DNA of 64,000 bases. Source: a phage. The notes beneath the pieces were generated by a model. That model worked only from the letters and a program-made list of their open reading frames with translations. It ran no database searches and was not told where the DNA came from. The stretch is from the sequence record PV467749.1, one strand, 5' to 3'. Each line of letters begins with the position of its first letter. The stretch's first letter is position 1. The translations under genes and the position numbers were made by a program. This document shows, piece by piece, positions 39,988 to 64,000 of the stretch.

Positions 39988-40023
39988 AATCAAATGAATG
40001 AACGAATTATATGGAGTCCAAAA

Positions 40024-43000
40024 ATGACTAATAATTTTAAGTTTCAACCTACACAGATGGCTGAAGCAGTACAGAAGAAGCTTTTCATAAAAAGATTGCC
40101 TGAGTGGATGCAAGGCTTAGAAGATATTCAGAAAGTCAGTGATGATGTTATCCAACAATGGTTTAATCCGGCTGAAAACGAATTAGTTGACGGCTACATT
40201 GGTGACATGGGTTCTCCGGCAGCAGCAGGGAACATCTTCTTACACGAGTCAACAGTCGCACGTCAACTATATCAGTTGTCCACTGCGTATGTCTCAAGAA
40301 ATGATGACTCCAGCATTCGTTCAATTCAATTTTATGATGATCTAGTTGGCTATATGAATCATTACGGGGCACTAACCGAAAATGAAAGCCGTTTGTTTAA
40401 TGGTAAGTTCTATTCATGGACCCCACCAATTAACCCTAACAAAATGAACAACTACAGTTCATATCTATGGGATTCCAAGAATAGCTATAATATCGCAACT
40501 CCAGATTATATTGTAATGGAACGTGGTGCAGAAAATGGAAACACTTGGTCACTACAAAACTTCTGGTACACATTAGGTGAAACTTTAGAAGATGGTACAA
40601 TCCTAACTGAAGAACTAATGCAAGATTCCCGTTTTGTTCGTGCTCGTGCTCCAATTATCGAATACAATAAAAATATCGAACTAATGAACTACGGTACTAA
40701 ATTCCGTGGGACAGTTGATTTGTTCTCTGATATTATTAAACCTGAAGATATCGTACAAAAAGATATTAACAGCGGTATACGTATTGATGGTATTATTCCA
40801 CAAGATGGTATGCGTATTCTTTTCACCAGTATTGGTAACAATGGTGAAAACAACCGAATTTATAAAGTATATGTTAAACGTATGCAAGATGGAACACGTG
40901 TGTATGGTCTAGCATTAGACCCAGACGAAGAATCTGAAAGCCGTCCGAGTGGTGAACCACAAGATGGTGACGTAGTTCTTATTATCAAAGGTAATGAATT
41001 TGGTAACAGTTCCATGTATTGGGACGGTTCTCATTGGATTCAAGCACAGTCTAAAACTTCTGTGAACGTATTTCCACAATTCCAATTGTATGACCGTAAT
41101 GGTGTTAAACTAAACAACACTACTACCTATCCATCAAGTACTTTTACTGGTTCTTCATTATTTGGTTTTAAAATTAACTATAATTATGCAACCGATAGCG
41201 TTTATGGTTATAACATTGAACTGGGTGATTACAATTATTACACCTATGAGAATTTCCTACAATCAACTCGTTATACCTACGAGCATTTGGGTGTGGAAGT
41301 TGAAATTGATGGACTATATTACTATAACGTAATTGGTGAAGGTAATACAATGAACCTAGAAACTGATTGGGTTCGTAGTACTGAATACTCCAAACAATAT
41401 GTTAAACAAACTCCACAGGTTGAACGTACAGTAATGTTCCGCGTGTTCAGTACTGTTTATGACATGGAAAGTTTCAAAGATCCAGTTGAAGGAATGTATG
41501 CTTATGTAATTGAAGTTGACAGAACTTATCAATATTACAAAGCAGAACGTGAAACATATCTTGATTGGCATGTTATCGTTGGTGATGGGGTACAAAGCGT
41601 TAAGTACAATCATACATTTGAATTGGCACAAAAAGTACTAGATAATTCTGATGATATTATCGAACTAGTTGTTGATGGTGTGGAAATAAAAGAATACACC
41701 AAAACTGTAGTTAATAATCAAGTACAAAGTATTACAATTGATAGCTCTGTTGATTTGGATGAAGATTCTGTTGTACAAATAAGAACTTATAGTAGCACTA
41801 TCACTCCTAATAAAGAGTTGGGTGCATATGAAGTTCCAATTAACCTACAAAATAACCCATATAATTCAAACATTGAATACATCAATCAAGGTGATTACAC
41901 CCTGCACTTCCAAGATATTATTCAAAAGAATATTACATCTGGTTCTGCTGATGACTTTAACAATTACGAAGAACGTTTGGCTGCTGGTTTGGTTAATAAT
42001 GGTGTAGGCACTAAAATTATTCAAAACGAAGCGTCCATGTTACCACTAATGGCACATACCGCTAATGAAGATATTGATTTGTTTGAATCAATCATGTTTA
42101 TGCAAGCAGAATACTTCCGCTTCATTAACAAGTTCAACACTCAAATGCTTCGTTTGTATGAAGAAGACCCAAGTGCTTTTCTTGGTAATAGTGCATCAAA
42201 CATCGTAGATGCGATTCTAACAGCTATTAATATGGGACGTGATAGTTCATTCCCATTCTACTATGACAACGTTGCAAGCACTGCTGGGTTTATTCGTGCA
42301 TTTGTCCCACCAACTCCACAGTTCTTGGGTATTTTGCAAGCTTATACACCACAAAAAGCAACATTCTTAACTGCTGGTAGTAAATCTAGCTGTTATAATA
42401 TCAGTCATACTGGTGTTATTTCAAAAGCATACCGTGTTATCAATGGTGTTGATAAAATGGATGACGTAGTTTTTGAATTGGAAAATCGTATCTTTAATAG
42501 TATTGACCTTACTTTCAAGGATATTGATTATAAACCAGTACTAAACAGTGAAGACCTATTCCCAACTCCATATTTCACTGGTACTGATTATAGTGCAGAA
42601 GAAAAGAAAACTCTATTACTACGTGGTTACATTAACTTCACAGCAACCAATGGTATTAGTAACAGTACTCATGATTATGATGCAAATAACTGGAGAACTT
42701 GGAACTATACTGGTAGTTATTATGTTGTTGATGGTCAACGTACTGAAATTCCTGCTCGTGGTTCATGGCGTGCAATCTATACTGACCAATATGGCACATA
42801 TCGTCCAGCAACCCATCCGTGGGAAATGATGGGCTTCTCTCAACGTCCTACTTGGTGGAACCAAGAATACGAACCAACCGCAGTTCAAGTTGGTGAACGT
42901 GAGGGTGATGTTGTTTATGTGTATGAAGCACTAGTAATGAATGAAAATGGTGATTTGGTCCCAAGTGGATTGTGGGATATTGATGGTACTATCGGTGACA

Positions 43001-46000
43001 GCAGCACTGGTACTATTTTGTCCGGTGAACGCCGTGGTCAATATGACAAATACAAGCGTTTCGGTGTACAGCCATTTAAAATCACTAAGACTGGCGAGAA
43101 AACCAGTACTGGTATTGATATTTGTGAAGTTGAGTATATTGCACCTGAAGTTTTAGGTCTTGTTAGTGGTAATTTAGATCATCGTGCAGAACCGTGGGCT
43201 TATGGTGACATGGGTGACATGGAATTCACTTACATGAACACTGCGATGTTTGCTTATGACCAAATGCTTCTTCTATACAAAGCAAAACCAGCACAGTTTG
43301 CAAACTATTACTGGGATACCCGTAATGATAACCTTAAACCAGTTTATACTGATGGTTCACAGTTCCTTTATGGTGAAACCCGTAAGCGTCTAAACTTTGA
43401 CAGTGCTACATTAGTACATGGTGAGAAAAATACCCGTACTATCGGTTATCAAATGTTTGTTAGTGACTATTTGATGTATCAGAATAAGAACATTACCACC
43501 AAATACGGTGACGTTGTTCGTTCTTCTTATGTCAATGTCGCTCACAAAATTGGTGGCTTTACTAAAGCAGACCAATTGACATTCACTGCTAAATCTTTCG
43601 GTTTGATTTCACAAGAAAACCAAACTATCGGTCTAGTTCGTTCCAATAACATTCGCGATGAGCAAATGAGTGCAGTAAAAATTACTTGGAATGGTAGTGC
43701 ATATCAAATTGATGGTTATGATTTAGTTGGTGCTAAATTTAAATATAAAATTCCAGTTAAAAATGGAAGAAAAGTAACTCTTAAATTGGAAGACAGAACT
43801 GTTGTTCATTACAATGAATGGAAATCTGAAGGTACATTAGAATATGGTAAAATATTCAATACATACCAAGAAGTTTATACTTTCATTTGTGGATATGGTG
43901 AATATCTAAAAGAACATGGCTGGATTTTTGAAGATGTAAATGATAGTGGTGCTCAACAAGACTGGACAACTATTGCTAAAGACTTTGTTATTTGGAGTCA
44001 GAATAATTTAAGTACTGGTGAGTTCATCTCCTGTACTCCAAGTGCAGCTAATGCTAAATTTGGTGCAGATTTTGGTTCAGTTCAATCTGTTACACAGAAC
44101 AGTGGTGGTGTTTGGTCACTACTCGATGATGAAAACCAAGGTATCCGTCAATATGAAATCGAAACTTCGCGTATCGGTAACGTATTCACAGTGAGAACTA
44201 CATCTGAATCACAAAAACGTATGGCGTTGATTCGTTTGAGCCTAAGTTCATATGAACACGCAGTTGTTTTTGATGATAAAACTATCTTTGGTGATTACAT
44301 TTACCAACCAACTTATGGTGCTATTCAAGAATTGATTAAAATGTATGGTTACATTACTGGGGCATGGACTGGTCGCCTACAAGCACCTGGTTTCATTATC
44401 CTAGAAGCAGGAACTTTACCATCATTTGAAAAATTAGTAACTGATTTTGAATTATATTATAATAGTGAAACTCCTGTGAGTGATGTTCAGCTTCAAGAGT
44501 TATCAAATCACTTGATTGGCTATCAAACTCGTGATTATCTACAACGTATGATTAGTAGTGATGTTAGTCGTGTTGATTTCTATAAAGGATTCATTCATGA
44601 CAAAGGTACTAACCAAGTAATGGAAAAAGTACTACGCGTTTCTAAATCTTACGACACTGATGAATATAAAGCACTACAGGAATGGGCATTTAAGATTGGC
44701 ACTTATGGTAATATCAATGGTAAGAAAAATCTACAATTTAAACTAATCAATGACCAATTTAAACAACAACCACAGATGGTTTCGTTTGATGTTAATGCTA
44801 CATCAAATGGTACTGGTAATGGTATTGTTTATTACGGTGAACAAGGGGTTGACTCACGCTGGATTACTCGTCCAAATGGTAAGTTTTCATTCCCAATGCG
44901 TAGTGGAAGAAGTGAGAATATCCAACTTCCAGACATTGGCCCAGTAACACTAGATGAAATTTCATACGTTACTAAAGATTTCAGTACTGCATATAATGAT
45001 CGTATCAATTATATGAATAACAGTGGTGAAATACCAGATTCTGTATGGATGTTTAAAGATGGTAATGATTTGTGGAATATTTTCGAACTAGTAGACACTG
45101 AAGTTGAGATGCTCTCTATCGTTCCAATTGAAAATACCGATGTATATGCAGAACAATTCTGTAAAGTAACTCTAAGTGATGATATCCCACTAAATGATGG
45201 TGATTATTATTACTTTGTTGATGAAACTAACTTTATGCCAGATACATTGACTATAGAAAGTCAATATTATACTGCGGGTAATGACCCTAGAGTTATGGTA
45301 GTTCCGTTTGACACTTCAATAACTATTGACTTCACTGATCCTGATACTCGCCCACGCTTGTATCGTTATGTTTCACGATTCAGTACTGAAGAGATGCGTC
45401 AGGAATACATTGACAGAAAATATAGTTTTAAAGCTCCACAAAGTACTTTGTTTGACCGCCCAACCACATATGATGAGCGTACTAACATTACTGCGTTGTA
45501 CCTAAACGTGTTTGACCCAATCAACGGTGTTATTCCTGGTGCAGCGATGCAGAACGTTACCTACACATCTCCAGTTGACCCAGCACAATACAACAGCAAT
45601 GGTGAATTGATTCAAGCATGGGGTGCTGATAAAGTTGGTCAGGTTTGGTGGAACACCAGCACTGCTTTCTACTTAGATTACACTCGTGCAATCTATGATG
45701 CTGATGGTAATGTGGATGTTGATGCAACAAATGAATATAAACGTTATAACTGGGGCAGATTGCTACCGCACAGTACTGTTGATGTTCTTGAATGGGTATG
45801 TTCGCCAGTGGAACCATATAACTGGGACAAATACTGTAAAGACGTTGCTAACAAAAATAAAAACAATACTATGTACCTACCAAGCGGAACCGCATTGGAA
45901 GATAATTATAGTACGTTCTTAGAATATGATAGCACAACTGATACTTATGTTACAAAATACTATTTCTGGGTTCGTGATACAATCTATGTACCACCATTGC

Positions 46001-49000
46001 ATTCCAGAACTAAATCTTGTACTGATATTGCTCGTATTATTAAAGAACCAGCACAGCTTAACATTCCTTGGTTTGCACCAATCAATGAAAGCTCGTTCAT
46101 TCTAAGTAATATGCAATTTGAAGTCAACGATGACACAAGTATTTTAACTGTTTCTTATTACATGGATAATACTGAAGTTATTAAACATGACCAGTATCAA
46201 TTATGTAAAGAAGGTGATAGCTATAACTTCAATCCATCAATCTGGACTTCTATGTGGAATTCTATGATTGGTCAAGAAACTACTGAATCAGGAACTGTTA
46301 TTGATTTACTATATCCTTTAGTACCAAACGGTTTAGGTTCTAATAAGACTTGGTTCCAAGATGTAATTGAAGCTCGTAGAAACTTTGTAGAAAGTGCAAA
46401 TAACTATTATCGCTCACAGAATATAACAACTAACACTGTTCTAATGGACGAAGTGTTTAATGTTAAAACTACTGAAGTTAACCCGAATGAAGTATCATAT
46501 CGTGTACTAACTTACAATAGTGAATTAGTCATTGCACCTGAAAGTGACAAGTTCAAAGAAAACGACGCAGTACTAGTAAGTACTAGTGGTGTATTACCTA
46601 ACCCACTATCAACTAGCTCTGTATATTTTGTGCATATTGATGCTAATGGTTATATTCATCTAATGAATAGTCCATCAAGTGCTGGTAGTGTGGTTACCAT
46701 TACATTGGAAAACCGTGGTGAAGGTCAACAGAAAATGATTAAACAATCAGACTATGTTGAAGCACTAGGAACTTCATTGGACATGACCCAGTACTGGTCA
46801 CTAGCAGATTGGTATGATATTGGTTACGATAAAAATACTGCATATACACAAGAATCCAGCCTAGAAGATGCAAACACTAAGAACTATCAAGTTGGTGACA
46901 TTATCAGAATTACAGATGTTGATGGCATCTGGACATTGTACATTAAAGCACAATCACGTGATTCAGTTTACTGGAAAGCAATTGGTCGTGAAAATAGTAC
47001 AGTTGAATTGAATGATATGTTATACGCTGACTATACAGTTCGTGATGCTAATGGTTCGTTGAGTAATCGTGAGATTAACGTTCGTAAAGCACTAGCTTTA
47101 TTGAAGAACTCATTCGACTTACATCAGAGTGAAATTGTGTTTGATATGGTTAAGTATGTTCACGTAGAACAAAGCGTTGTTGATTGGGTATTCAAAACAT
47201 CTTACATTTATATTGTAGGTTTAGAACAATCATTAGTACAGAACTATTCCAACGACAACTTGATTAATCAAATCGTTGAGTACTTTGAAGAAGTTAAACC
47301 ATATAGAACTAAGATTCGTTCCCAGATTGAACAGAAAACATCAGATGATGATTTAATTAAAGGTTTGTGTAATGATTTAGATCCTAATGGCTATATATTT
47401 GCAGATGGGACTTGGGTTAAAACGGAAAAAGACATTTGGGATTATGAATATGCTCAATTCAATGAGGTAACTCAACGTTGGGAGCAAGTTGGTGAATTGC
47501 CAAGTGATTTCGTAACACCTAATCGCCGTTTCCAAGAAATTGATGTTATCATGCACTACGACAACACTCAATGTAAACCAAATGATAATTTGGCAAGTGT
47601 TGATGTATTGGAAGAAGTGAATAAGAAATATCAATCTAATGCACAAGATGTTGTTAGTAATTTTGAATTACAACGTTACAAATATACATTCCCAGAATAC
47701 AGTGATGAAGATTTCGACCTATTGGTTGCTTATCAGATGCAATTGTATTACCCAGAATTGAACGTAACTCTAGGGATTGCTTACGGTGTTAACCAATGGT
47801 ATGCAGACCATGCAGATGATTTGGTAGCAACCGCAGAATTCACAGAAACGTTGAATCGTGTATATAAAGAATCAACACAAAATGAAATGTTTAATGACGT
47901 AAATCATTACGTTCAGTATAACACACTCTCTAACCGTTTGAAATTGTACACAGGTGCAGATGATGAAGTAATTCATGATGAAGTTGGATGTGGATTTAGT
48001 GGGTTAACCTATGATGATAATCCAAGCACCAGACTACCGTTTGGTTATGCATCCAGTACTGATTATAACTTTGGTTACTTTGAAGTTAGTAGTGAGTTGT
48101 ATAAAAAGTATGTTTCTTTAATTAAAGAAAACAATACTACTGCAACTGATGATGAAGTTAGAATTATACTTGAAGTTGAATATGGTGTTTATTCATATCG
48201 CCATGTAGATGAAGATGGAAATCAACGATTCTACAATGACGCAATTCATGTATTGTCCGGTATGCGTGGTTTGTATGACAAAGATGCTACCGACCATTAT
48301 GAAAAGGCTGAAGAAATACTAAGTAGAATGCCTATTGATATTCATGCATTTACTATGATGCCACGAAAATATGTTTATGTTAATGTTAATGGTGTATACG
48401 AGAGTATCCCAGATGACCAAAGCATTGATGATTTCATGGAAGACAAATTCATAACTGACGGTCAACTAGTTCAATTGGCAGAAATAAATCTTGATGACTT
48501 ACCTCTTGATAGAAATAACCCAATGTACAGTGATTATCAGCACATCCTAGATAGCATCACCGATGCTAAGTACTACGATGATATGAATGCATTTGATAAC
48601 CTAGCACTTGAATCACAAACTTCCGAGTTAAAATGGGAAGTTGAAGGTGACGAAGTAGATCCGTACATAATCGACATTTCTGATATTAACCCATCAGGAA
48701 GAAAGATTGGTCAGATTCGCTTCACAGTTGATGGTTATGGATTCAATAGTGTTTCACTAGTTCAATTGAGAGACAATAGTAGATATAAAACTGAAGGTAT
48801 GGTTATTATCAACCCTTATAAAACAACAGAAGCAATTGTTAGTATTCCTTCTTACGCTAAGATTGAAAATGATATTAGTAAATCATACAGTAAGTATGAT
48901 GAAAAATACTTCTATAAAATTAAATCAATTGTTAGTGATACAGAAGCTGAAGTAATTGACAATACCCTATCTGATGGTGATAAGGTTATGATATTCACAA

Positions 49001-49995
49001 CTGATGGTGAAGATTATGTGAGATACCAAAACAATGCATGGGAAACCATCTTGAGTGTATCAAAAATCAAAACTGACACCACACCAACCTTGTACACAGT
49101 AAGAAACACTGCGAACGGAACTGTAGAACTACTAGATAGTACTGGAGTTGTACTTCGTTATGATAACATCACTAAACAACAACAAAATGAACCAGCAATA
49201 CCTCTAGCATTGAACATCGTTCGTATTAGAACCTTTGCTGATCCAGAATTCTTGGTTGATGGTGTTAAGTTGTATGAAACAAATAGAAACTATGCTATCG
49301 ACGCAATGAACTATGAAGTATTCTACGACACAACACTATACGGTGGTTCTTATAATGATGGAATTACACCAGATGACGTTGATGTTTGGGTAGTGTCTAA
49401 CGAGATATTTGAAGTTGATGGTGTTACCATTGATAACGGATATAACTTACCAATTACTGGTGCAGGTGTTCTTAGTGAGTTAGTGAGAACCAAAATGACT
49501 GATAGTGTGGAAATTAACGTGTTCGAGTATGATGTTGGTATTATTCAACCAGTACTGAATACTGAAGGGGTATGGGAATATGCATATCCACTAGTTAGTG
49601 ATACATATATTGGTGTAGTTGGTGGAACAGTAACTAACATTACTGCTATCAGTGAAGAAAATGCTACTTATGTTTCACAACCAGATTCAGTTAGTCCATA
49701 TAGTGTTACTAATAATGTTCTATCTGGTGCTGGTGCAAGTATGAATGATATTATTTCTCTTGGTTTTGAAAAAGTTGAAGTACGATTTGCAAATAACTTA
49801 CTCCGTGGGGTAATGTATAGTGCAGAACACGACTTTAAAGAGAATGTGACATATTCATTTAATGGCTTGAACTTAGGTAAAGTTAATTTACTAAAACGTT
49901 ATAGTGTTAACAGTTATCCAATCGAACTATCTGTTTACTCCGATAGTTTGCAAATAAGTGGTAATGACATTAAAAATCTATTAGAAGTTAAATAA
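40024..49995 (+). CDS. giant virion-associated protein (~3,320 aa), probable baseplate/tail component
   Basis: Uninterrupted ~10-kb ORF; start chosen at ATG (MTNNFKF) with GGAG RBS and CATAAATA late-like box about 36 nt upstream; track ORF starts 30 nt earlier without RBS. Confidence 0.85.
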   Translation: MTNNFKFQPTQMAEAVQKKLFIKRLPEWMQGLEDIQKVSDDVIQQWFNPAENELVDGYIGDMGSPAAAGNIFLHESTVARQLYQLSTAYVSRNDDSSIRSIQFYDDLVGYMNHYGALTENESRLFNGKFYSWTPPINPNKMNNYSSYLWDSKNSYNIATPDYIVMERGAENGNTWSLQNFWYTLGETLEDGTILTEELMQDSRFVRARAPIIEYNKNIELMNYGTKFRGTVDLFSDIIKPEDIVQKDINSGIRIDGIIPQDGMRILFTSIGNNGENNRIYKVYVKRMQDGTRVYGLALDPDEESESRPSGEPQDGDVVLIIKGNEFGNSSMYWDGSHWIQAQSKTSVNVFPQFQLYDRNGVKLNNTTTYPSSTFTGSSLFGFKINYNYATDSVYGYNIELGDYNYYTYENFLQSTRYTYEHLGVEVEIDGLYYYNVIGEGNTMNLETDWVRSTEYSKQYVKQTPQVERTVMFRVFSTVYDMESFKDPVEGMYAYVIEVDRTYQYYKAERETYLDWHVIVGDGVQSVKYNHTFELAQKVLDNSDDIIELVVDGVEIKEYTKTVVNNQVQSITIDSSVDLDEDSVVQIRTYSSTITPNKELGAYEVPINLQNNPYNSNIEYINQGDYTLHFQDIIQKNITSGSADDFNNYEERLAAGLVNNGVGTKIIQNEASMLPLMAHTANEDIDLFESIMFMQAEYFRFINKFNTQMLRLYEEDPSAFLGNSASNIVDAILTAINMGRDSSFPFYYDNVASTAGFIRAFVPPTPQFLGILQAYTPQKATFLTAGSKSSCYNISHTGVISKAYRVINGVDKMDDVVFELENRIFNSIDLTFKDIDYKPVLNSEDLFPTPYFTGTDYSAEEKKTLLLRGYINFTATNGISNSTHDYDANNWRTWNYTGSYYVVDGQRTEIPARGSWRAIYTDQYGTYRPATHPWEMMGFSQRPTWWNQEYEPTAVQVGEREGDVVYVYEALVMNENGDLVPSGLWDIDGTIGDSSTGTILSGERRGQYDKYKRFGVQPFKITKTGEKTSTGIDICEVEYIAPEVLGLVSGNLDHRAEPWAYGDMGDMEFTYMNTAMFAYDQMLLLYKAKPAQFANYYWDTRNDNLKPVYTDGSQFLYGETRKRLNFDSATLVHGEKNTRTIGYQMFVSDYLMYQNKNITTKYGDVVRSSYVNVAHKIGGFTKADQLTFTAKSFGLISQENQTIGLVRSNNIRDEQMSAVKITWNGSAYQIDGYDLVGAKFKYKIPVKNGRKVTLKLEDRTVVHYNEWKSEGTLEYGKIFNTYQEVYTFICGYGEYLKEHGWIFEDVNDSGAQQDWTTIAKDFVIWSQNNLSTGEFISCTPSAANAKFGADFGSVQSVTQNSGGVWSLLDDENQGIRQYEIETSRIGNVFTVRTTSESQKRMALIRLSLSSYEHAVVFDDKTIFGDYIYQPTYGAIQELIKMYGYITGAWTGRLQAPGFIILEAGTLPSFEKLVTDFELYYNSETPVSDVQLQELSNHLIGYQTRDYLQRMISSDVSRVDFYKGFIHDKGTNQVMEKVLRVSKSYDTDEYKALQEWAFKIGTYGNINGKKNLQFKLINDQFKQQPQMVSFDVNATSNGTGNGIVYYGEQGVDSRWITRPNGKFSFPMRSGRSENIQLPDIGPVTLDEISYVTKDFSTAYNDRINYMNNSGEIPDSVWMFKDGNDLWNIFELVDTEVEMLSIVPIENTDVYAEQFCKVTLSDDIPLNDGDYYYFVDETNFMPDTLTIESQYYTAGNDPRVMVVPFDTSITIDFTDPDTRPRLYRYVSRFSTEEMRQEYIDRKYSFKAPQSTLFDRPTTYDERTNITALYLNVFDPINGVIPGAAMQNVTYTSPVDPAQYNSNGELIQAWGADKVGQVWWNTSTAFYLDYTRAIYDADGNVDVDATNEYKRYNWGRLLPHSTVDVLEWVCSPVEPYNWDKYCKDVANKNKNNTMYLPSGTALEDNYSTFLEYDSTTDTYVTKYYFWVRDTIYVPPLHSRTKSCTDIARIIKEPAQLNIPWFAPINESSFILSNMQFEVNDDTSILTVSYYMDNTEVIKHDQYQLCKEGDSYNFNPSIWTSMWNSMIGQETTESGTVIDLLYPLVPNGLGSNKTWFQDVIEARRNFVESANNYYRSQNITTNTVLMDEVFNVKTTEVNPNEVSYRVLTYNSELVIAPESDKFKENDAVLVSTSGVLPNPLSTSSVYFVHIDANGYIHLMNSPSSAGSVVTITLENRGEGQQKMIKQSDYVEALGTSLDMTQYWSLADWYDIGYDKNTAYTQESSLEDANTKNYQVGDIIRITDVDGIWTLYIKAQSRDSVYWKAIGRENSTVELNDMLYADYTVRDANGSLSNREINVRKALALLKNSFDLHQSEIVFDMVKYVHVEQSVVDWVFKTSYIYIVGLEQSLVQNYSNDNLINQIVEYFEEVKPYRTKIRSQIEQKTSDDDLIKGLCNDLDPNGYIFADGTWVKTEKDIWDYEYAQFNEVTQRWEQVGELPSDFVTPNRRFQEIDVIMHYDNTQCKPNDNLASVDVLEEVNKKYQSNAQDVVSNFELQRYKYTFPEYSDEDFDLLVAYQMQLYYPELNVTLGIAYGVNQWYADHADDLVATAEFTETLNRVYKESTQNEMFNDVNHYVQYNTLSNRLKLYTGADDEVIHDEVGCGFSGLTYDDNPSTRLPFGYASSTDYNFGYFEVSSELYKKYVSLIKENNTTATDDEVRIILEVEYGVYSYRHVDEDGNQRFYNDAIHVLSGMRGLYDKDATDHYEKAEEILSRMPIDIHAFTMMPRKYVYVNVNGVYESIPDDQSIDDFMEDKFITDGQLVQLAEINLDDLPLDRNNPMYSDYQHILDSITDAKYYDDMNAFDNLALESQTSELKWEVEGDEVDPYIIDISDINPSGRKIGQIRFTVDGYGFNSVSLVQLRDNSRYKTEGMVIINPYKTTEAIVSIPSYAKIENDISKSYSKYDEKYFYKIKSIVSDTEAEVIDNTLSDGDKVMIFTTDGEDYVRYQNNAWETILSVSKIKTDTTPTLYTVRNTANGTVELLDSTGVVLRYDNITKQQQNEPAIPLALNIVRIRTFADPEFLVDGVKLYETNRNYAIDAMNYEVFYDTTLYGGSYNDGITPDDVDVWVVSNEIFEVDGVTIDNGYNLPITGAGVLSELVRTKMTDSVEINVFEYDVGIIQPVLNTEGVWEYAYPLVSDTYIGVVGGTVTNITAISEENATYVSQPDSVSPYSVTNNVLSGAGASMNDIISLGFEKVEVRFANNLLRGVMYSAEHDFKENVTYSFNGLNLGKVNLLKRYSVNSYPIELSVYSDSLQISGNDIKNLLEVK

Positions 49996-58001: not shown

Positions 58002-58110
58002 TGTTAAGCCCTTTTAGTAGTGAACTTTCATTTATTTATTAATGGCAACGAAATGTATTTTGTACTGATAAATATTGGTATATGACATTAACTCATACAA
58101 GGGAAATATT

Positions 58111-59238
58111 ATGACAATTTCATTCAACAATGGGTCAGGTGGTTCATGTAATAATTCTGGCATCAAAAGTTTAGTTATTAACGCTGCTGGACATTTAATT
58201 GTAACCTATTCCGACAATACAATCCAAGACCTAGGTCTAGTGGTTGGACAAAATGGTGCTAACGGTAGAAACTTTTATCCAAATGAGATAGGTTTTGAAG
58301 TTCCTAATGAACTCTTCCGTGTTGGTGAAGAACTAGGGTGGTGTTATCTTAGTCTTGCAAACGGCACTAGTACTTTATATTTTAAATCAAACGATGCCCA
58401 AGAAACAATTAGTACTTGGAACCGTGTAGAGTTTGGTAAAGGTGATACTGGTGAAGCTGGTAAACCATTCCACATTGACAGTTCTGGTACGGCGTTTCCA
58501 ACAACTGGTCTTTTCGATAATTACACATTCTATAATACTGAAGATGGTAAATTATATTTCTATCAAAGCGTAACTGCAACATGGAGTGATGGTATTCCTT
58601 TCCGTGGTGAACAAGGTCTACGTGGTCGTTTCCATATTGATAGTACTGGTAGTCAATTCCCAAGCATTGATAATCTACCACAAGATTATTGCTTCTATAA
58701 CACGACAGATGGTAATTTGTATTATGTCGATATCGTAACTACATCATCAACCCCAACTAAAGAGTGGAGTGCTGGTATCTTATTCCGTGGAAAAGACGGT
58801 GAAGAAGGTAAGCAAGGTGAACAAGGTATTCAGGGTGAACCAGGTAAAGATACAGTTGTTATTATCAACACTATTGATCATTCATGGACTAACGCATTGT
58901 TAGTTATTGGTACATGCCCTGCTGGATACCTAGTAACTAATATCGAAGTTGATATTAACCAAGCATATGATGAACCAGTAAATGAAATGTTTGTACGTTT
59001 CGGTGGTGAAGCACAAGAAGATATTGGTGGTACTGTAATTGCACCTGTTGATTATTTCGATATCAACCGCAAAATGCGTTACATTGTTAACGAAACCAAC
59101 CACGAAGTATCAAGTAAAGATGAAATCATTTCTTGTGTATTCAATGATTCCGTAAACAACAGTTCATTTGGTGAAATGAAGATCGTTTGTACTTTATCAT
59201 GGCAAGCACCTATTCAGCCTATTCAAGATAACATTTAA
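58111..59238 (+). CDS. tail fiber protein with collagen-like Gly-X-Y repeats
   Basis: Start at ATG (MTISFNNG) with AAGGGAAA RBS; GEAGKPF, GEQGLRGRF, GKDGEEGKQGEQGIQGEPGKD repeats. Confidence 0.8.
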   Translation: MTISFNNGSGGSCNNSGIKSLVINAAGHLIVTYSDNTIQDLGLVVGQNGANGRNFYPNEIGFEVPNELFRVGEELGWCYLSLANGTSTLYFKSNDAQETISTWNRVEFGKGDTGEAGKPFHIDSSGTAFPTTGLFDNYTFYNTEDGKLYFYQSVTATWSDGIPFRGEQGLRGRFHIDSTGSQFPSIDNLPQDYCFYNTTDGNLYYVDIVTTSSTPTKEWSAGILFRGKDGEEGKQGEQGIQGEPGKDTVVIINTIDHSWTNALLVIGTCPAGYLVTNIEVDINQAYDEPVNEMFVRFGGEAQEDIGGTVIAPVDYFDINRKMRYIVNETNHEVSSKDEIISCVFNDSVNNSSFGEMKIVCTLSWQAPIQPIQDNI

Positions 59239-59252
59239 AAGAGGGTTGATAA

Positions 59253-59288
59253 ATGGCAGTTTTTTCCAATTTAGAAGGGACCATGATG
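59253..59288 (+). repeat. direct repeat (copy 1) covering start of tailspike gene
   Basis: atggcagttttttccaatttagaagggaccatga; about 32/34 identical to copy at 61409. Confidence 0.75.
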
Positions 59289-61394
59289 CCAACATTCAAG
59301 TTGGGTAAACGTGGTGCTTCTATTAATTTTGTAAACGATTCTGTCGCAATCAAAGACTTTTTAGGCGAAACGTTCCTACCTGTTAAGGTGGGAACTCCTA
59401 ATGACGATGATTCCGCAGTAAACGTTAGGTATCTTGAAGATAACCCAAATGCTTTATTTGGCGTACTTCCACCAACAAATGACATTGGTAAAAATAACAA
59501 CACTTATTTTCAAGTTGATTCTGAGGGTATTGTTGATATCTTTGCAAAAACAAATGATGTTTGGGTAAAATCATTATACATTAATAAAAATGTCCTTTCC
59601 AGTGTTAACGGTGCTGATTATATCGGACTTATTACTGGAGGAACACTTCAACAGGCACAGTTTTACATAACTCCAGAAGAGTTTGGTGCAAAAGGTGATG
59701 GCATCACTGATGACACGGCGGCGGTTAACGCATGTGCAGTTTATGCTAAAGAACACAAAATCCAAATTCAAGCTGGTGGTAATTATCGTATCAGAACTGC
59801 TGTTTATTTGAATGATATTCAATGGTTTGGTGGTACAATCACTGGTAACGGTGGCACAATGGTATCGGTACTGAATAGTACAATCCAACAAGCAACATTA
59901 ACAGGATGTTATTTAAAATTCTTTGGTGGTAATGGTAAATTTTATTTTAATAAATTTATTAATATTACAAGTACTGCTGCATTTCTAATGCAAGGTATGA
60001 CTGAATCAGGTACTATCGACTTCTGCTTTAATGAAATGACACAATGTAAGTACGGTGTTCTTCAGCAAGGCACTGGTGAGAAAATGACCGTTGGGCGTTA
60101 TTCATACAACCACATCCATGATATATATGGTGATGCAATTGAATTGAACGTAGTCAACTCACATTACCCAGACGGATTTGTAATAGAAGGTAACTTGATT
60201 GAAAACGTAGATGGTACAAATGCACCAATTCCTCTTTCAAACTGGGGTATTGGTATCGGTGTTGCAGGTTCTGGTCCTTATGATGTGAATGCTGATGATT
60301 CACAATATGTAAAAAAATTCGTTATAAAAAATAACCGCTTGTACAATGTCCGTCAATGTATTCACGTTGAGTTGGGTAAAGACTTTAAAATTCTCAATAA
60401 TGAAGTTTATCCATCAACGTTGGTATCAATTGGTACTGGTTTGACAACCGCTGGTGTAATTACTTATGGTTCTGTTGATTTTATTATTGATGGCCTATCT
60501 GGGCATCTATTAAATGATCCATCAGTAACTAACCGTATGGTTTCTATTAACTGGGGCGTAACATCTGGTAAATTTGCTGGTCCACCACGAAACTTTAAAT
60601 TATGTAATCTCCACATTCCTGAGTCGTCTATTATTGTGTATACTTCAGGCTCTGATAATTGGCTAAATACTACTGAACTTTCTAATATTACATGTAGTAG
60701 AATTCAATGGCGTGGATTGCCGTCATCTTCCAAGTTTAATAATATCAGTACTAAAGAACTTGATGTTATTGGACAACACCTTGCAACTGAAGGTGAAGGA
60801 GGGGGCTTATATACTCGCTCTAAATATACATATACCAACTGGACTAATTGTGTTGTTCAAGATGATTGTAACATATCAAAATATAGTTTCTCAAGAATGT
60901 ATGTTGACCGTATTGACCAATCATCTAATAACTTTAAAGTAACCACTGCAATTGATGGAACGGGTCATCGTGGACCTGTAGTAATACCTGTAGTTGAACA
61001 GTATTACGTGCCTTATGATGTTTTTCCTGGTGGGAGATATTTCCCAGCAGGAACAATTATCCATAAACAATCAGGTGGAAAATTTATTGTTACAGTAGGT
61101 GGTTCTTTCTTTGGTCGATATGACACAATTAGACAAACAGTTGCAGGACAAACTTATATCGAAGCATTGGGTGTATCATGGGGTGATAATCAATATGCTA
61201 AAGCTGCTGGAACCGAAATCCTAATCACAGGAGCAGGGGAAAATGGCGAAGATTTAAAAACATATATCACTAGAGCAGTTTATGTTGTTAATAATGCGTA
61301 TCGTATCGATATTGCCGATCCGATTGTTACTGCTACCGCAGCAGGGGCATTATTGAAAGCTGCTCAACCAATAACATATATCACCCTATCTTAA
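59253..61394 (+). CDS. tailspike with pectate-lyase-like beta-helix (putative polysaccharide depolymerase)
   Basis: FGAKGDGITDDTAAVNA motif typical of pectate lyase superfamily tailspikes; conserved N-terminal anchor MAVFSNLEGTM shared with next gene. Confidence 0.8.
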   Translation: MAVFSNLEGTMMPTFKLGKRGASINFVNDSVAIKDFLGETFLPVKVGTPNDDDSAVNVRYLEDNPNALFGVLPPTNDIGKNNNTYFQVDSEGIVDIFAKTNDVWVKSLYINKNVLSSVNGADYIGLITGGTLQQAQFYITPEEFGAKGDGITDDTAAVNACAVYAKEHKIQIQAGGNYRIRTAVYLNDIQWFGGTITGNGGTMVSVLNSTIQQATLTGCYLKFFGGNGKFYFNKFINITSTAAFLMQGMTESGTIDFCFNEMTQCKYGVLQQGTGEKMTVGRYSYNHIHDIYGDAIELNVVNSHYPDGFVIEGNLIENVDGTNAPIPLSNWGIGIGVAGSGPYDVNADDSQYVKKFVIKNNRLYNVRQCIHVELGKDFKILNNEVYPSTLVSIGTGLTTAGVITYGSVDFIIDGLSGHLLNDPSVTNRMVSINWGVTSGKFAGPPRNFKLCNLHIPESSIIVYTSGSDNWLNTTELSNITCSRIQWRGLPSSSKFNNISTKELDVIGQHLATEGEGGGLYTRSKYTYTNWTNCVVQDDCNISKYSFSRMYVDRIDQSSNNFKVTTAIDGTGHRGPVVIPVVEQYYVPYDVFPGGRYFPAGTIIHKQSGGKFIVTVGGSFFGRYDTIRQTVAGQTYIEALGVSWGDNQYAKAAGTEILITGAGENGEDLKTYITRAVYVVNNAYRIDIADPIVTATAAGALLKAAQPITYITLS

Positions 61395-61408: not shown

Positions 61409-61444
61409 ATGGCAGTTTTTTCTAATTTAGAAGGAACCATGAAG
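61409..61444 (+). repeat. direct repeat (copy 2) covering start of next fiber gene
   Basis: atggcagttttttctaatttagaaggaaccatga. Confidence 0.75.
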
Positions 61445-62308
61445 AAGACCTTCATACTTGGTAAAAATGGTGCACAAATTGCCACTAATGGTAATGTTGT
61501 TCAAATCCAGAACTACACGGGTACACAACTTCTTCCTGTTTCAGCAGGTGACCCAACCGCAAATACACACTTGGTTACATTGGGTTATTTGAATACACAT
61601 AGCGGTGGCGGTGGTGGTTCCGGTATTTTACGTGGAACTATTGCACCATCTGAATCAATCGGTGTAGATGGTGACGCTTACTTCTTAGTTGACAGTACTA
61701 ATATTATTCAGATCTATATTAAAGACCTTGGTGTTTGGAAGCCTCTCCAAAGCACAACTCCAGGTACTGATAGTTCTTACGTTACTACTGAAATCGTTCC
61801 TGTATCGGCATTTACATTAGTTCCTGGAACAACTGATCAATATACTTATTCTTTACCTGAATCAGTACATGGTCGTGGACCAGATATTATGGTTCAGCTA
61901 CAGGGTGATCCTGGTAACATCCCACTTGACACTGTATTCCAAACTAACGTCACTGTGAGTGGTATTGGTGACATTACGATTGATGTTATTGGTCAAATCA
62001 CTGAATATACAAGTGTCAAAGTCAACATCATAGGAGCAACAACAATGACAGTACCTTATAGTAAATTAATTAATATAGCAGATTGGGTAGCATCTGGTGA
62101 TGATTACACCATTACTGTTCCAGCGTCAGAACATAACCAAACACCTGACAATTTGTATATTTCTATATATTCAAATAAAACACCAGGCAGTACAGCAGCA
62201 TCACCATTTGAACTGGTAATAACCGAAACTCAAATTGATGCAAGTGGTAATGTTACATTTACTTCTGACGAAGCGTTTAGTGGTAAAATAGTAATTTCCG
62301 GTAAATAA
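61409..62308 (+). CDS. tail fiber/spike protein sharing the N-terminal anchor module
   Basis: N-terminus MAVFSNLEGTMKKTFILGKNGA near-identical to 59253 gene at DNA level for about 34 nt; AAGGAG RBS; terminator downstream. Confidence 0.8.
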   Translation: MAVFSNLEGTMKKTFILGKNGAQIATNGNVVQIQNYTGTQLLPVSAGDPTANTHLVTLGYLNTHSGGGGGSGILRGTIAPSESIGVDGDAYFLVDSTNIIQIYIKDLGVWKPLQSTTPGTDSSYVTTEIVPVSAFTLVPGTTDQYTYSLPESVHGRGPDIMVQLQGDPGNIPLDTVFQTNVTVSGIGDITIDVIGQITEYTSVKVNIIGATTMTVPYSKLINIADWVASGDDYTITVPASEHNQTPDNLYISIYSNKTPGSTAASPFELVITETQIDASGNVTFTSDEAFSGKIVISGK

Positions 62309-62315
62309 AAAAAAT

Positions 62316-62350
62316 AGTCCAGACTATGATTCATCTAGTCTGGATTTTTT
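62316..62350 (+). terminator. intrinsic terminator after fiber gene 61409..62308
   Basis: TCCAGACTA-TGATTCATC-TAGTCTGGA followed by TTTTTT. Confidence 0.8.
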
Positions 62351-62426
62351 ATATCAATAACTAAATATATGTATATTAACAAGGTCAAATGTATTTTATG
62401 CTTTTTGCCTATTTGGAGGGAACTAA

Positions 62427-64000
62427 ATGTACTCGATTAAAACAGATCTCGATATAACTGGTGGTGCAACGGTTGCTAAAGATCTTCTTGTGAAAGGCGA
62501 TGCAGTATTCAATAAAAATCTAACAGTTAATGGAACTGTAACTTTTGCTGACGCTGTATTCACTGCAATTGAAGCAGAAACTGTAGACATTTCATCTACA
62601 CTAGATGTTGCTGGTAAAGCATCATTGAATGGTGGAATTGAAGTTCATGGTAATTCCGTAATTGGTAATTTGCCTGTTGGTTCTGATACTGCAACGATTA
62701 ATTCCAATGCACAATTCCAAAGCCCAGTATCAATGGCAGGTAACCTAACACAAACCGCTGGCACTGCTGTACTAAAAGATACCCAAGTGGCATCAATGGA
62801 TGTTCTTGGAACTTCTTCATTTAAAGGTAATATTACTGCTGAAACTGGCACTACCGCAGCATTTGACAAAATAACTGCAACTGATGCAACATTCACAAAC
62901 ACTGCAACTACTGATATCACATCAACTGGAACTGCAAACTTTAAAGATGTGAATATTTCCGGTACACTAGGTGGAACATTTAGTCTATCTGATGTTAATG
63001 CAACAACTCTAACTGTTTCTGGTTTAACCAGTCTACAAGGTGGTGTTACATTAGGTTCCAACATTACTGGTGTGAATAGTAGTGCAAACTTCCGTGATAT
63101 TAAAATTGGTTCCAATGCTGCAAACACTAACTACCGTTTGAGCTTTAACTATTCTGCTCCAAGTCTTCGTCCAACTGTAATTCTACAGAACGAAATCCAA
63201 TCAGAATTGATGTCTCCAGCTACCCTAAGTGTATTGAAAACTGCATCTTTTGGTGATTCGTCACTATCCACTTTTGGTATTACTGGTAATGGTCTAAACA
63301 AACTAGATTACCTAACAGTATCTGGTAACTCTGTTCAAGATCCAACAACTCCACTATTACAAGTAACTTCAGGTAAAACTAAAGTTCATGATTTCGAAGT
63401 AACAGGAACTGCAACTATTCCTAACATTGAAAGTACTGGTACTGCTAATTTTAATAACATCAACGTATCTGGTACACTCGGTGGTACTTTCAGTCTTGAT
63501 GATATTGAAGCAAACACTCTAACTGTTTCTGGATTAACTAGCCTTGTTGGTGGTGTAACTTTAGGTGCTGATATTTCCGGTGCTAATAGTACTGCTAATT
63601 TTAAAGCAGTAAGTTTAGGACAAAACGCAGCCGATGCTAACGTTAAGTATGGTTTTGCTTATTCTGCCCCTGGTGCTCGCCCAACTGTAATTCTACAAAA
63701 TGAAATTCAGTCTGAGCTAGTATCTCCAGCAGTACTTAATGTACAAAAAACTGCAACCTTTGGTGATGCATCTCTTGCAACCTATGGTATCACAGGTAAC
63801 GGTCTAAACAAACTAGATTATCTATCTATTACTGGTAATGGTACACAAAGTCCAGCTACCCCACAACTACAAGTTGCTGGTAAATCAGTACTAAATGATG
63901 TTGAATTCACTGGTACTGTAACTGGTCTAACTGTTGATGTAAGTGGGCAAGACCTAACTCCTAAATCAGTAGTTGCTGCTGAAGCAATCAAAGGTCAAAC
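62427..64000 (+). CDS. long repetitive tail fiber protein (3'-truncated by window end)
   Basis: ATG with GGAGGG RBS; open to window end; Thr/Gly/Asn/Val-rich with two ~150-aa internal tandem repeats; absent from ORF track because incomplete. Confidence 0.7.
   Translation, partial: MYSIKTDLDITGGATVAKDLLVKGDAVFNKNLTVNGTVTFADAVFTAIEAETVDISSTLDVAGKASLNGGIEVHGNSVIGNLPVGSDTATINSNAQFQSPVSMAGNLTQTAGTAVLKDTQVASMDVLGTSSFKGNITAETGTTAAFDKITATDATFTNTATTDITSTGTANFKDVNISGTLGGTFSLSDVNATTLTVSGLTSLQGGVTLGSNITGVNSSANFRDIKIGSNAANTNYRLSFNYSAPSLRPTVILQNEIQSELMSPATLSVLKTASFGDSSLSTFGITGNGLNKLDYLTVSGNSVQDPTTPLLQVTSGKTKVHDFEVTGTATIPNIESTGTANFNNINVSGTLGGTFSLDDIEANTLTVSGLTSLVGGVTLGADISGANSTANFKAVSLGQNAADANVKYGFAYSAPGARPTVILQNEIQSELVSPAVLNVQKTATFGDASLATYGITGNGLNKLDYLSITGNGTQSPATPQLQVAGKSVLNDVEFTGTVTGLTVDVSGQDLTPKSVVAAEAIKGQ
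62931..63890 (+). repeat. in-frame tandem duplication (two units of about 450-510 nt) inside the terminal fiber gene
   Basis: Protein repeats TGTANFKDVNISGTLGGTFSLSDVNATTLTVSGLTSL... and TGTANFNNINVSGTLGGTFSLDDIEANTLTVSGLTSL...; DNA segment ggtctaaacaaactagatta recurs about 510 nt apart. Confidence 0.75.

Follow-up and report, generated by a model that had tools for sequence, protein, structure and literature searches.

The only relative with a solved structure that sequence comparison finds for the fibre described here (E 1e-27) is the long tail fibre of Pectobacterium phage phiTE (PDB 9CUY/9MJN, chain g), a trimeric, baseplate-attached protein of which only residues 14–171 were built, the remainder being described from an AlphaFold3 model in which the trimer forms a very elongated beta-helix and 793 residues cover 512 Å (PMC11972413). 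Long fibres of Rak2-like jumbo phages (121Q gp571, phAPEC6 gp256, CBB_226, Ecwhy1_207/208) are known as virion components (PMC7247149, PMC5259590): mass spectrometry of virions detected phAPEC6 gp256 (180 kDa) by 15 peptides (PMC7247149) and CBB_226 by 10 peptides (PMC5259590). An ortholog and paralog of these proteins, lying in the same gene neighbourhood, is encoded at the end of the stretch analysed here, a 64,000-nucleotide window of phage record PV467749.1, read on one strand 5' to 3' and numbered by its own positions. The 5' part of this fibre gene (62427..64000, plus strand, 524 codons) is open from an ATG at 62427 to the window end, where it is cut, and contains two 170-residue units in tandem. 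The reading argued for below, to which a probability of about 80% is given, is that these units are an ancient, stable, two-copy module, maintained by selection and predicted to be a segment of the fibre shaft, whose copy number would change rarely and by whole units.

Over its last 1.7 kb the window is 98–99% identical to ten Escherichia jumbo phages (~355–385 kb; Turkey3, Ecwhy_1, EC.P1, vB_Ec-M-J and fEgEco12 are among these isolates) and ~72–75% identical to the 121Q/PBECO4 group, all of them Asteriusvirus, and by these matches the genome group to which the window belongs is that of Asteriusvirus-type jumbo coliphages. Over the shared part, 523 of 524 residues of the window fibre are identical to gene 207 of Ecwhy_1 (Ecwhy1_207), whose full length is 1644 residues, 524 of its codons falling inside the window; as the open reading frame (ORF) runs off the window end, it is absent from the program-made ORF list. 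Rak2-like genomes and the window share a gene order (nudix hydrolase, structural genes, tail protein, tailspike-like protein, 299-residue protein, fibre), and their long fibres share an N-terminal region of 164 residues followed by tandem units. In the window this region occupies 62427..62918 (plus strand, by hidden Markov model (HMM) domain coordinates in relatives), and its length is conserved, the first unit beginning near residue 165 in most of the homologous fibres compared (121Q, JNE01, PHA46, EJP2, P0010–P0018 and ph0011). The proteins differ in their C-terminal parts and total length (1644 versus 1841 residues), and the window units are only 71–79% identical to those of 121Q and JNE01. 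Unlike 121Q, which has one fibre gene, the window lineage has two in tandem, as in Ecwhy_1, where Ecwhy1_207 is directly followed by Ecwhy1_208 (~1900 residues). The original prediction had placed the repeat in a 'terminal' fibre gene, which is true of its position in the window, but the window ends inside this gene and another fibre gene comes next in related genomes. Orthology of phAPEC6 gp256 and CBB_226 to the window fibre was checked by position and length, and the mass spectrometry of these orthologs suggests that the window protein is likewise a virion component.

More distant systems share the module as well. The phiTE long fibre and rV5 gp28 contain the 170-residue module or its C-terminal 120–140 residues (HMM E 1e-15 for rV5 gp28), and the phiTE fibre also shares a C-terminal domain with the window-type protein (phmmer E 1e-27). 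These two fibres differ from the window protein in carrying one module copy and in being much shorter (793 and 581 residues, respectively), and the N-terminal attachment region of the phiTE fibre does not align to the window protein. T4 gp34 resembles the window fibre in its length (>1200 residues) and in being encoded near baseplate genes, but no homology between the two was detectable by BLASTP (best E 0.01 over 99 columns with 28% gaps) or by profile comparison (hhalign probability 0.1%). The label 'long tail fiber proximal subunit', which refers to T4 gp34 and is widespread for these genes, therefore has no detectable sequence basis; other GenBank labels of the orthologs are 'flagellar hook-length control protein', 'colanic acid-degrading protein' and 'hypothetical'.

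The repeat is a genuine in-frame tandem domain duplication within the fibre gene. According to the protein alignment, repeat unit 1 (U1 type, residues 165–334, 62919..63428, plus strand, ending ...KTKVHDFEVTGTATIPNI) abuts repeat unit 2 (U2 type, residues 335–504, 63429..63938, plus strand) with no spacer, and the start-to-start spacing is exactly 510 nucleotides, or 170 codons, in the reading frame of the ORF at 62427, as had been predicted for a tandem duplication inside the fibre gene. An offset of 510 is the sole outlier among self-match offsets in the gene: in-register DNA identity between the units is 67% over 454 nucleotides, above the 60% mark that the original prediction had set for a self-alignment, and some 15 standard deviations above the other in-frame offsets (31 ± 2.4%, maximum 38.5%). 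A high-similarity core runs from ~62922–63375 versus 63432–63885, in essential agreement with the predicted span of 62931–63890, and the two best DNA blocks (215 nucleotides at 73% and 167 at 74%) are both spaced by 510 nucleotides. The longest exact DNA match between the units is the 20-mer GGTCTAAACAAACTAGATTA, quoted earlier as a sign that the DNA is recognisably repeated; it occurs in register at 63291..63310 and 63801..63820 (plus strand) and nowhere else in the window. It encodes the conserved motif G-L-N-K-L-D-Y, in which N-K-L-D-Y is invariant across all aligned Asteriusvirus-type units and the D and Y across all 19–23 aligned units. The two copies are longer and less alike than the 'near-identical' segments of '~150' residues first described, a unit having 170 residues and the protein identity being only 66–67% (BLASTP, 67% over 165 residues, E ~1e-72). 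Exactly two units are present in the full-length protein. Unit 2 has retained the ancestral C-terminal junction, ...LQVAGKSVLNDVEFTGTVTGLTVD, and single-copy homologs show this junction too. Tandem Repeats Finder, run on the window, did not call the repeat, whose period exceeds the program's limit of 500 and whose copies are too divergent for it. Antisense ORFs within the repeat (e.g., 62645–63127, minus strand, 160 residues) were taken as frame artefacts of the coding strand.

Profile searches delineate the unit as a previously uncharacterised fibre module lacking a Pfam family, found in one to three tandem copies in Rak2-like phages and singly in rV5- and phiTE-like phages. Pfam and NCBIfam scans returned no family matching the unit or the full-length protein. 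A sub-threshold match to MmoB/DmpM was dismissed as noise, and PF04519 (bactofilin/polymer-forming cytoskeletal protein) gave no match in a Pfam scan of the full-length protein and both units, the label being precomputed only on a distant fragment, P0009. PHROG 4549 ('tail fiber protein') matches both the window protein (E 3.9e-181) and the isolated unit (E 2.9e-28). When 1.84 billion cluster representatives were searched exhaustively with a profile, only 15 proteins with the unit were retrieved, and all of those inspected are long fibre-like proteins; word-indexed protein searches with the two units, a 19-unit alignment or the conserved core gave six, four and one matches, respectively, the low yield of the first two probably reflecting a biased query composition that filled the candidate list. 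A tblastn search of phage genomes places the unit in Rak2-like jumbo phages; rV5-like phages and their relatives have one partial copy. A 302-residue protein, P0002, encoded on a 1255-nucleotide contig that NCBI labels as Actinomadura adrarensis, is 100% identical to the window fibre, and this contig has almost certainly entered the A. adrarensis assembly as contamination from a phage or from E. coli. Repeated domains are a familiar feature of phage fibres, and this repeat is ordinary in kind; in the searched literature no description of the internal repeat of these fibres was found. On another view no true duplication took place, and the units resemble each other because fibre shafts in general are of low complexity and rich in G, T, S and N. 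The first ~50 residues of the unit do resemble generic shaft repeats, giving weak HMM matches (E 0.08–0.8) elsewhere in the protein. Against this stand the BLASTP score between the units, sustained over 165 residues, the in-register DNA identity far above background offsets, the motifs RPTVILQNEIQSE and GITGNGLNKLDY, which are conserved in the units and not of low complexity, and the rarity of the unit as a recognisable family, so that a purely compositional origin is extremely improbable.

The duplication had been described as recent, and on that account near-identical copies would form a recombination-unstable locus liable to collapse in short-read assembly. The tandem, in-frame arrangement of the units and their 20-nucleotide exact match would fit such an origin, but the divergence between them does not. 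By the Nei–Gojobori method the units differ by 0.27 nonsynonymous (dN) and 1.30 synonymous (dS) substitutions per site, synonymous sites thus being saturated, and third-codon-position identity is down to 48%. At 111 positions the two units have the same amino acid, and at 62 of these the codon is identical too, where 57.7 are expected from the codon usage of the gene; this closeness to expectation indicates that the likeness of the units at the DNA level is a product of protein conservation and codon bias. Gene conversion between the units was considered and rejected, since identical codons are not in excess. Across units dN/dS is ~0.2–0.35, a range that shows both units to be kept under purifying selection.

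Orthologous positions tell the same story. Both units occur at the same residues in the orthologs of 121Q (gp571), JNE01 and ph0011 (phAPEC6 gp256 has the same length as 121Q gp571), and in the paralog Ecwhy1_208 a unit of U1 type likewise precedes one of U2 type. Per-unit identity is 71–79% between orthologs and 56–67% between paralogs. In neighbour-joining trees the units of the window phage, 121Q, JNE01 and the paralog cluster by position and not by genome, the U1 type being monophyletic at 97–99% bootstrap and the U2 type at 93%, and dS between units (0.8–1.3) equals or exceeds dS between orthologs (0.7–1.1). From the shared positions, the position-specific clades and the dS values it follows that the duplication preceded both the radiation of Asteriusvirus, as far as its lineages were sampled, and the doubling of the fibre gene. 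The claim of recency does not survive the combination of saturated synonymous sites, codon use at expectation and units that keep their position-specific types in the paralog and in every Asteriusvirus lineage sampled.

Nor does the locus appear fragile. All ten isolates at 98–99% identity align across the repeat in one piece and with equal length, and no copy-number change was found among them; the comparison among isolates that the original prediction had proposed as a check speaks against instability in this lineage. The units have no 21-mer in common, their longest shared string being the 20-mer, a length at which the anticipated assembly collapse loses its basis. The related expectation, that the repeat is prone to expansion or contraction, is borne out across the family, where one to three copies and a deletion allele occur, but not among these close isolates. 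The locus is, then, neither a recent nor a fragile duplication, and a long-read check is not needed.

Copy number across the family was counted with an HMM of the unit in homologous fibres. One copy is found in rV5 gp28, the phiTE-like P0021, Erwinia pEa_SNUABM_50, Xanthomonas XaC1 and P0018; two in the window phage, 121Q, CBB, PHA46 and P0011–P0015; and three in the second fibre of JNE01 (= P0010) and in EJP2. Most Rak2-like jumbo phages have two. A second, paralogous long fibre gene lies directly downstream in the window's group and in JNE01 and is absent in 121Q; it encodes two units in Ecwhy1_208 (L001:14212-19701) and three in JNE01 (L003:12147-15666). In the JNE01 second fibre, units 1 and 2 pair with each other (85% bootstrap, 83% amino acid identity, dS 0.53), corresponding to an extra U1-type copy, while units 2 and 3 of EJP2 (90%) and the two units of P0011 (96%) also pair together, a pattern that indicates, on the branching of these unit sequences, several separate copy-number events in the family. 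Scans of IMG/VR and metagenomes for further alleles returned only 121Q, CBB and three contigs.

The most informative variant is a loss. Two short Logan contigs, L009 and L010, from the independent runs SRR20818753 and ERR13965906, encode a one-unit fibre whose flanks are, on both sides, 98.3–99.3% identical to the two-unit phage ph0011 (OP557969). Relative to ph0011 exactly 510 nucleotides, amounting to unit 1, are missing in frame (L012:4879-5388), and the deletion junction is identical in the two contigs, falling in a 15-nucleotide microhomology, AGTACTGGnACTGCT, located at the unit starts and having an internal mismatch; the junction sequence of the one-unit allele reads AGTACTGGAACTGCTAATTTT. 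The surviving unit is sister to U2 of 121Q (98% bootstrap), and hence the one-unit allele represents a loss and not a primitive state. Since the shared stretch should be too short to collapse a k=31 assembly graph, the allele, although derived from assembled contigs, is taken as real. The existence elsewhere in the family of an exact one-unit deletion might be counted in favour of a recent, recombination-unstable duplication. However, the deletion made use of a short, mismatched microhomology and not of extended homology, and with a DNA identity of 67%, no shared 21-mer, a dS of 1.3 and ten close isolates of constant length, an origin of this kind is very unlikely for the window locus.

These observations are consistent with a two-copy module that was fixed long ago and has since been altered only occasionally. 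In the proposed mechanism each module would form one segment of an intertwined homotrimeric shaft, each copy would lengthen the proximal shaft by some 10–11 nm (170 residues at the scale of the phiTE fibre), and changes in copy number would be rare, whole units being gained or lost in frame through short microhomologies, presumably with no part played by homologous recombination from copy to copy. The motif found after the unit in the phiTE long fibre, of the type VSGQDLTPKSV, also follows unit 2 in the window, where the downstream shaft begins (63939..64000, plus strand) and is cut by the window end. An AlphaFold2 model of the monomer, computed with a 23-sequence alignment, was fully extended and free of intrachain secondary structure at a predicted local distance difference test (pLDDT) score of 70, an outcome compatible with a chain that folds only when intertwined with two others. 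A single-sequence prediction of both units (pLDDT 50) gave an unusable model, and a Foldseek search of the alignment-based model against the PDB yielded one meaningless match (E 5.8). Natural unit-precise copy-number variants such as those described above could guide the engineering of fibre length.

Several points weigh against this interpretation. The middle of unit 2 (~ residues 88–109) is predicted with low confidence and might instead project from the shaft as a small domain involved in binding. The experimental phiTE structure, confined to residues 14–171, stops short of the module, and the role of the module as a length spacer is itself inferred. The neighbour-joining trees from which the relative age of the units was read were built with 300–500 bootstraps on ~170 columns, a modest method and size, and the duplication may or may not be one event with those in the lineage of PHA46, EJP2 and P0015, which may have arisen independently. 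Finally, a fibre of 1550–1840 residues (the orthologs span 1553–1841), scaled by phiTE, would measure ~100–120 nm, closer by this analogy to the tail 'hairs' of CBB, which are 119 ± 10 nm long and have no assigned genes, than to its 29-nm baseplate fibres (PMC5259590). As phAPEC6 and fEgEco12 are also described as 'hairy' (PMC7247149, PMC13070987), it may be asked whether this 1,550–2,100-residue protein, instead of the baseplate 'long tail fibre' of its annotation, forms the ~120-nm hairs or whiskers that Rak2-like jumbo phages (CBB, phAPEC6, fEgEco12) bear on their tails and perhaps also on their capsids. This identification is unlikely, if not negligibly so; were it true, a module number of one, two or three would be a natural length dial for the hairs.

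The genes upstream of the fibre raise another possible function for the units. A colanic-acid-degrading tailspike-like protein of 713 residues (59253–61394) and a 299-residue structural protein (61409–62308), encoded directly before the fibre gene, have in common an N-terminus of ~65 residues beginning MAVFSNLEGTM (59253–59450 and 61409–61610, respectively), which is probably a common attachment adaptor. Branched fibre complexes occur in related jumbo phages and in Vi1-like phages, and the units might accordingly be docking platforms, each binding one adaptor-bearing accessory protein, with copy number setting the valency of a branched receptor-binding complex. Genome-wide tblastn counts give two adaptors in Asteriusvirus and one in Eneladusvirus, Mimasvirus, RaK2-type phages and XaC1, and units and adaptors match in 121Q (2:2), in the Erwinia phage (Eneladusvirus, 1:1) and in XaC1 (1:1). 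The correspondence fails elsewhere: CBB has two units but one adaptor, and the second fibre of JNE01 has three units with two adaptors. For PHA46, with two units, one adaptor-bearing gene was counted within the fibre locus; EJP2 has three units; and the SE_PL/Munch group has one adaptor, SE_PL showing two unit-matching places that are not confirmed as two units. Because the counts diverge outside a few genomes, docking is retained as an alternative of low probability, and a shaft segment remains the preferred role of the module.

Expression signals of the fibre gene are recognisable immediately 5' of it. A ribosome-binding site, GGAGG (62415..62419, plus strand), was read from the sequence 7 nucleotides 5' of the start codon, and between the stop of the 299-residue structural gene (62308) and the fibre gene a hairpin with a T-run (62316..62350, plus strand) is a likely intrinsic terminator, its RNA fold having an energy of −15.9 kcal/mol and a z-score of −5.3, equalled by none of 200 shuffles. 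A consensus terminator scan of the window did not call this hairpin, probably owing to a stem-loop geometry outside the simple pattern of the scan. Further upstream, a single ORF of 3333 residues (39994–49995, plus strand) probably corresponds to gp245 of phAPEC6, a virion protein of 382 kDa (PMC7247149). The ORF at 58075–59238, a 'tail protein' (PHROG 13565), contains at 58798–58848 a short tandem repeat of 9/18 nucleotides encoding a collagen-like Gly-x-y run, GKDGEEGKQGEQGIQGEPGKD.

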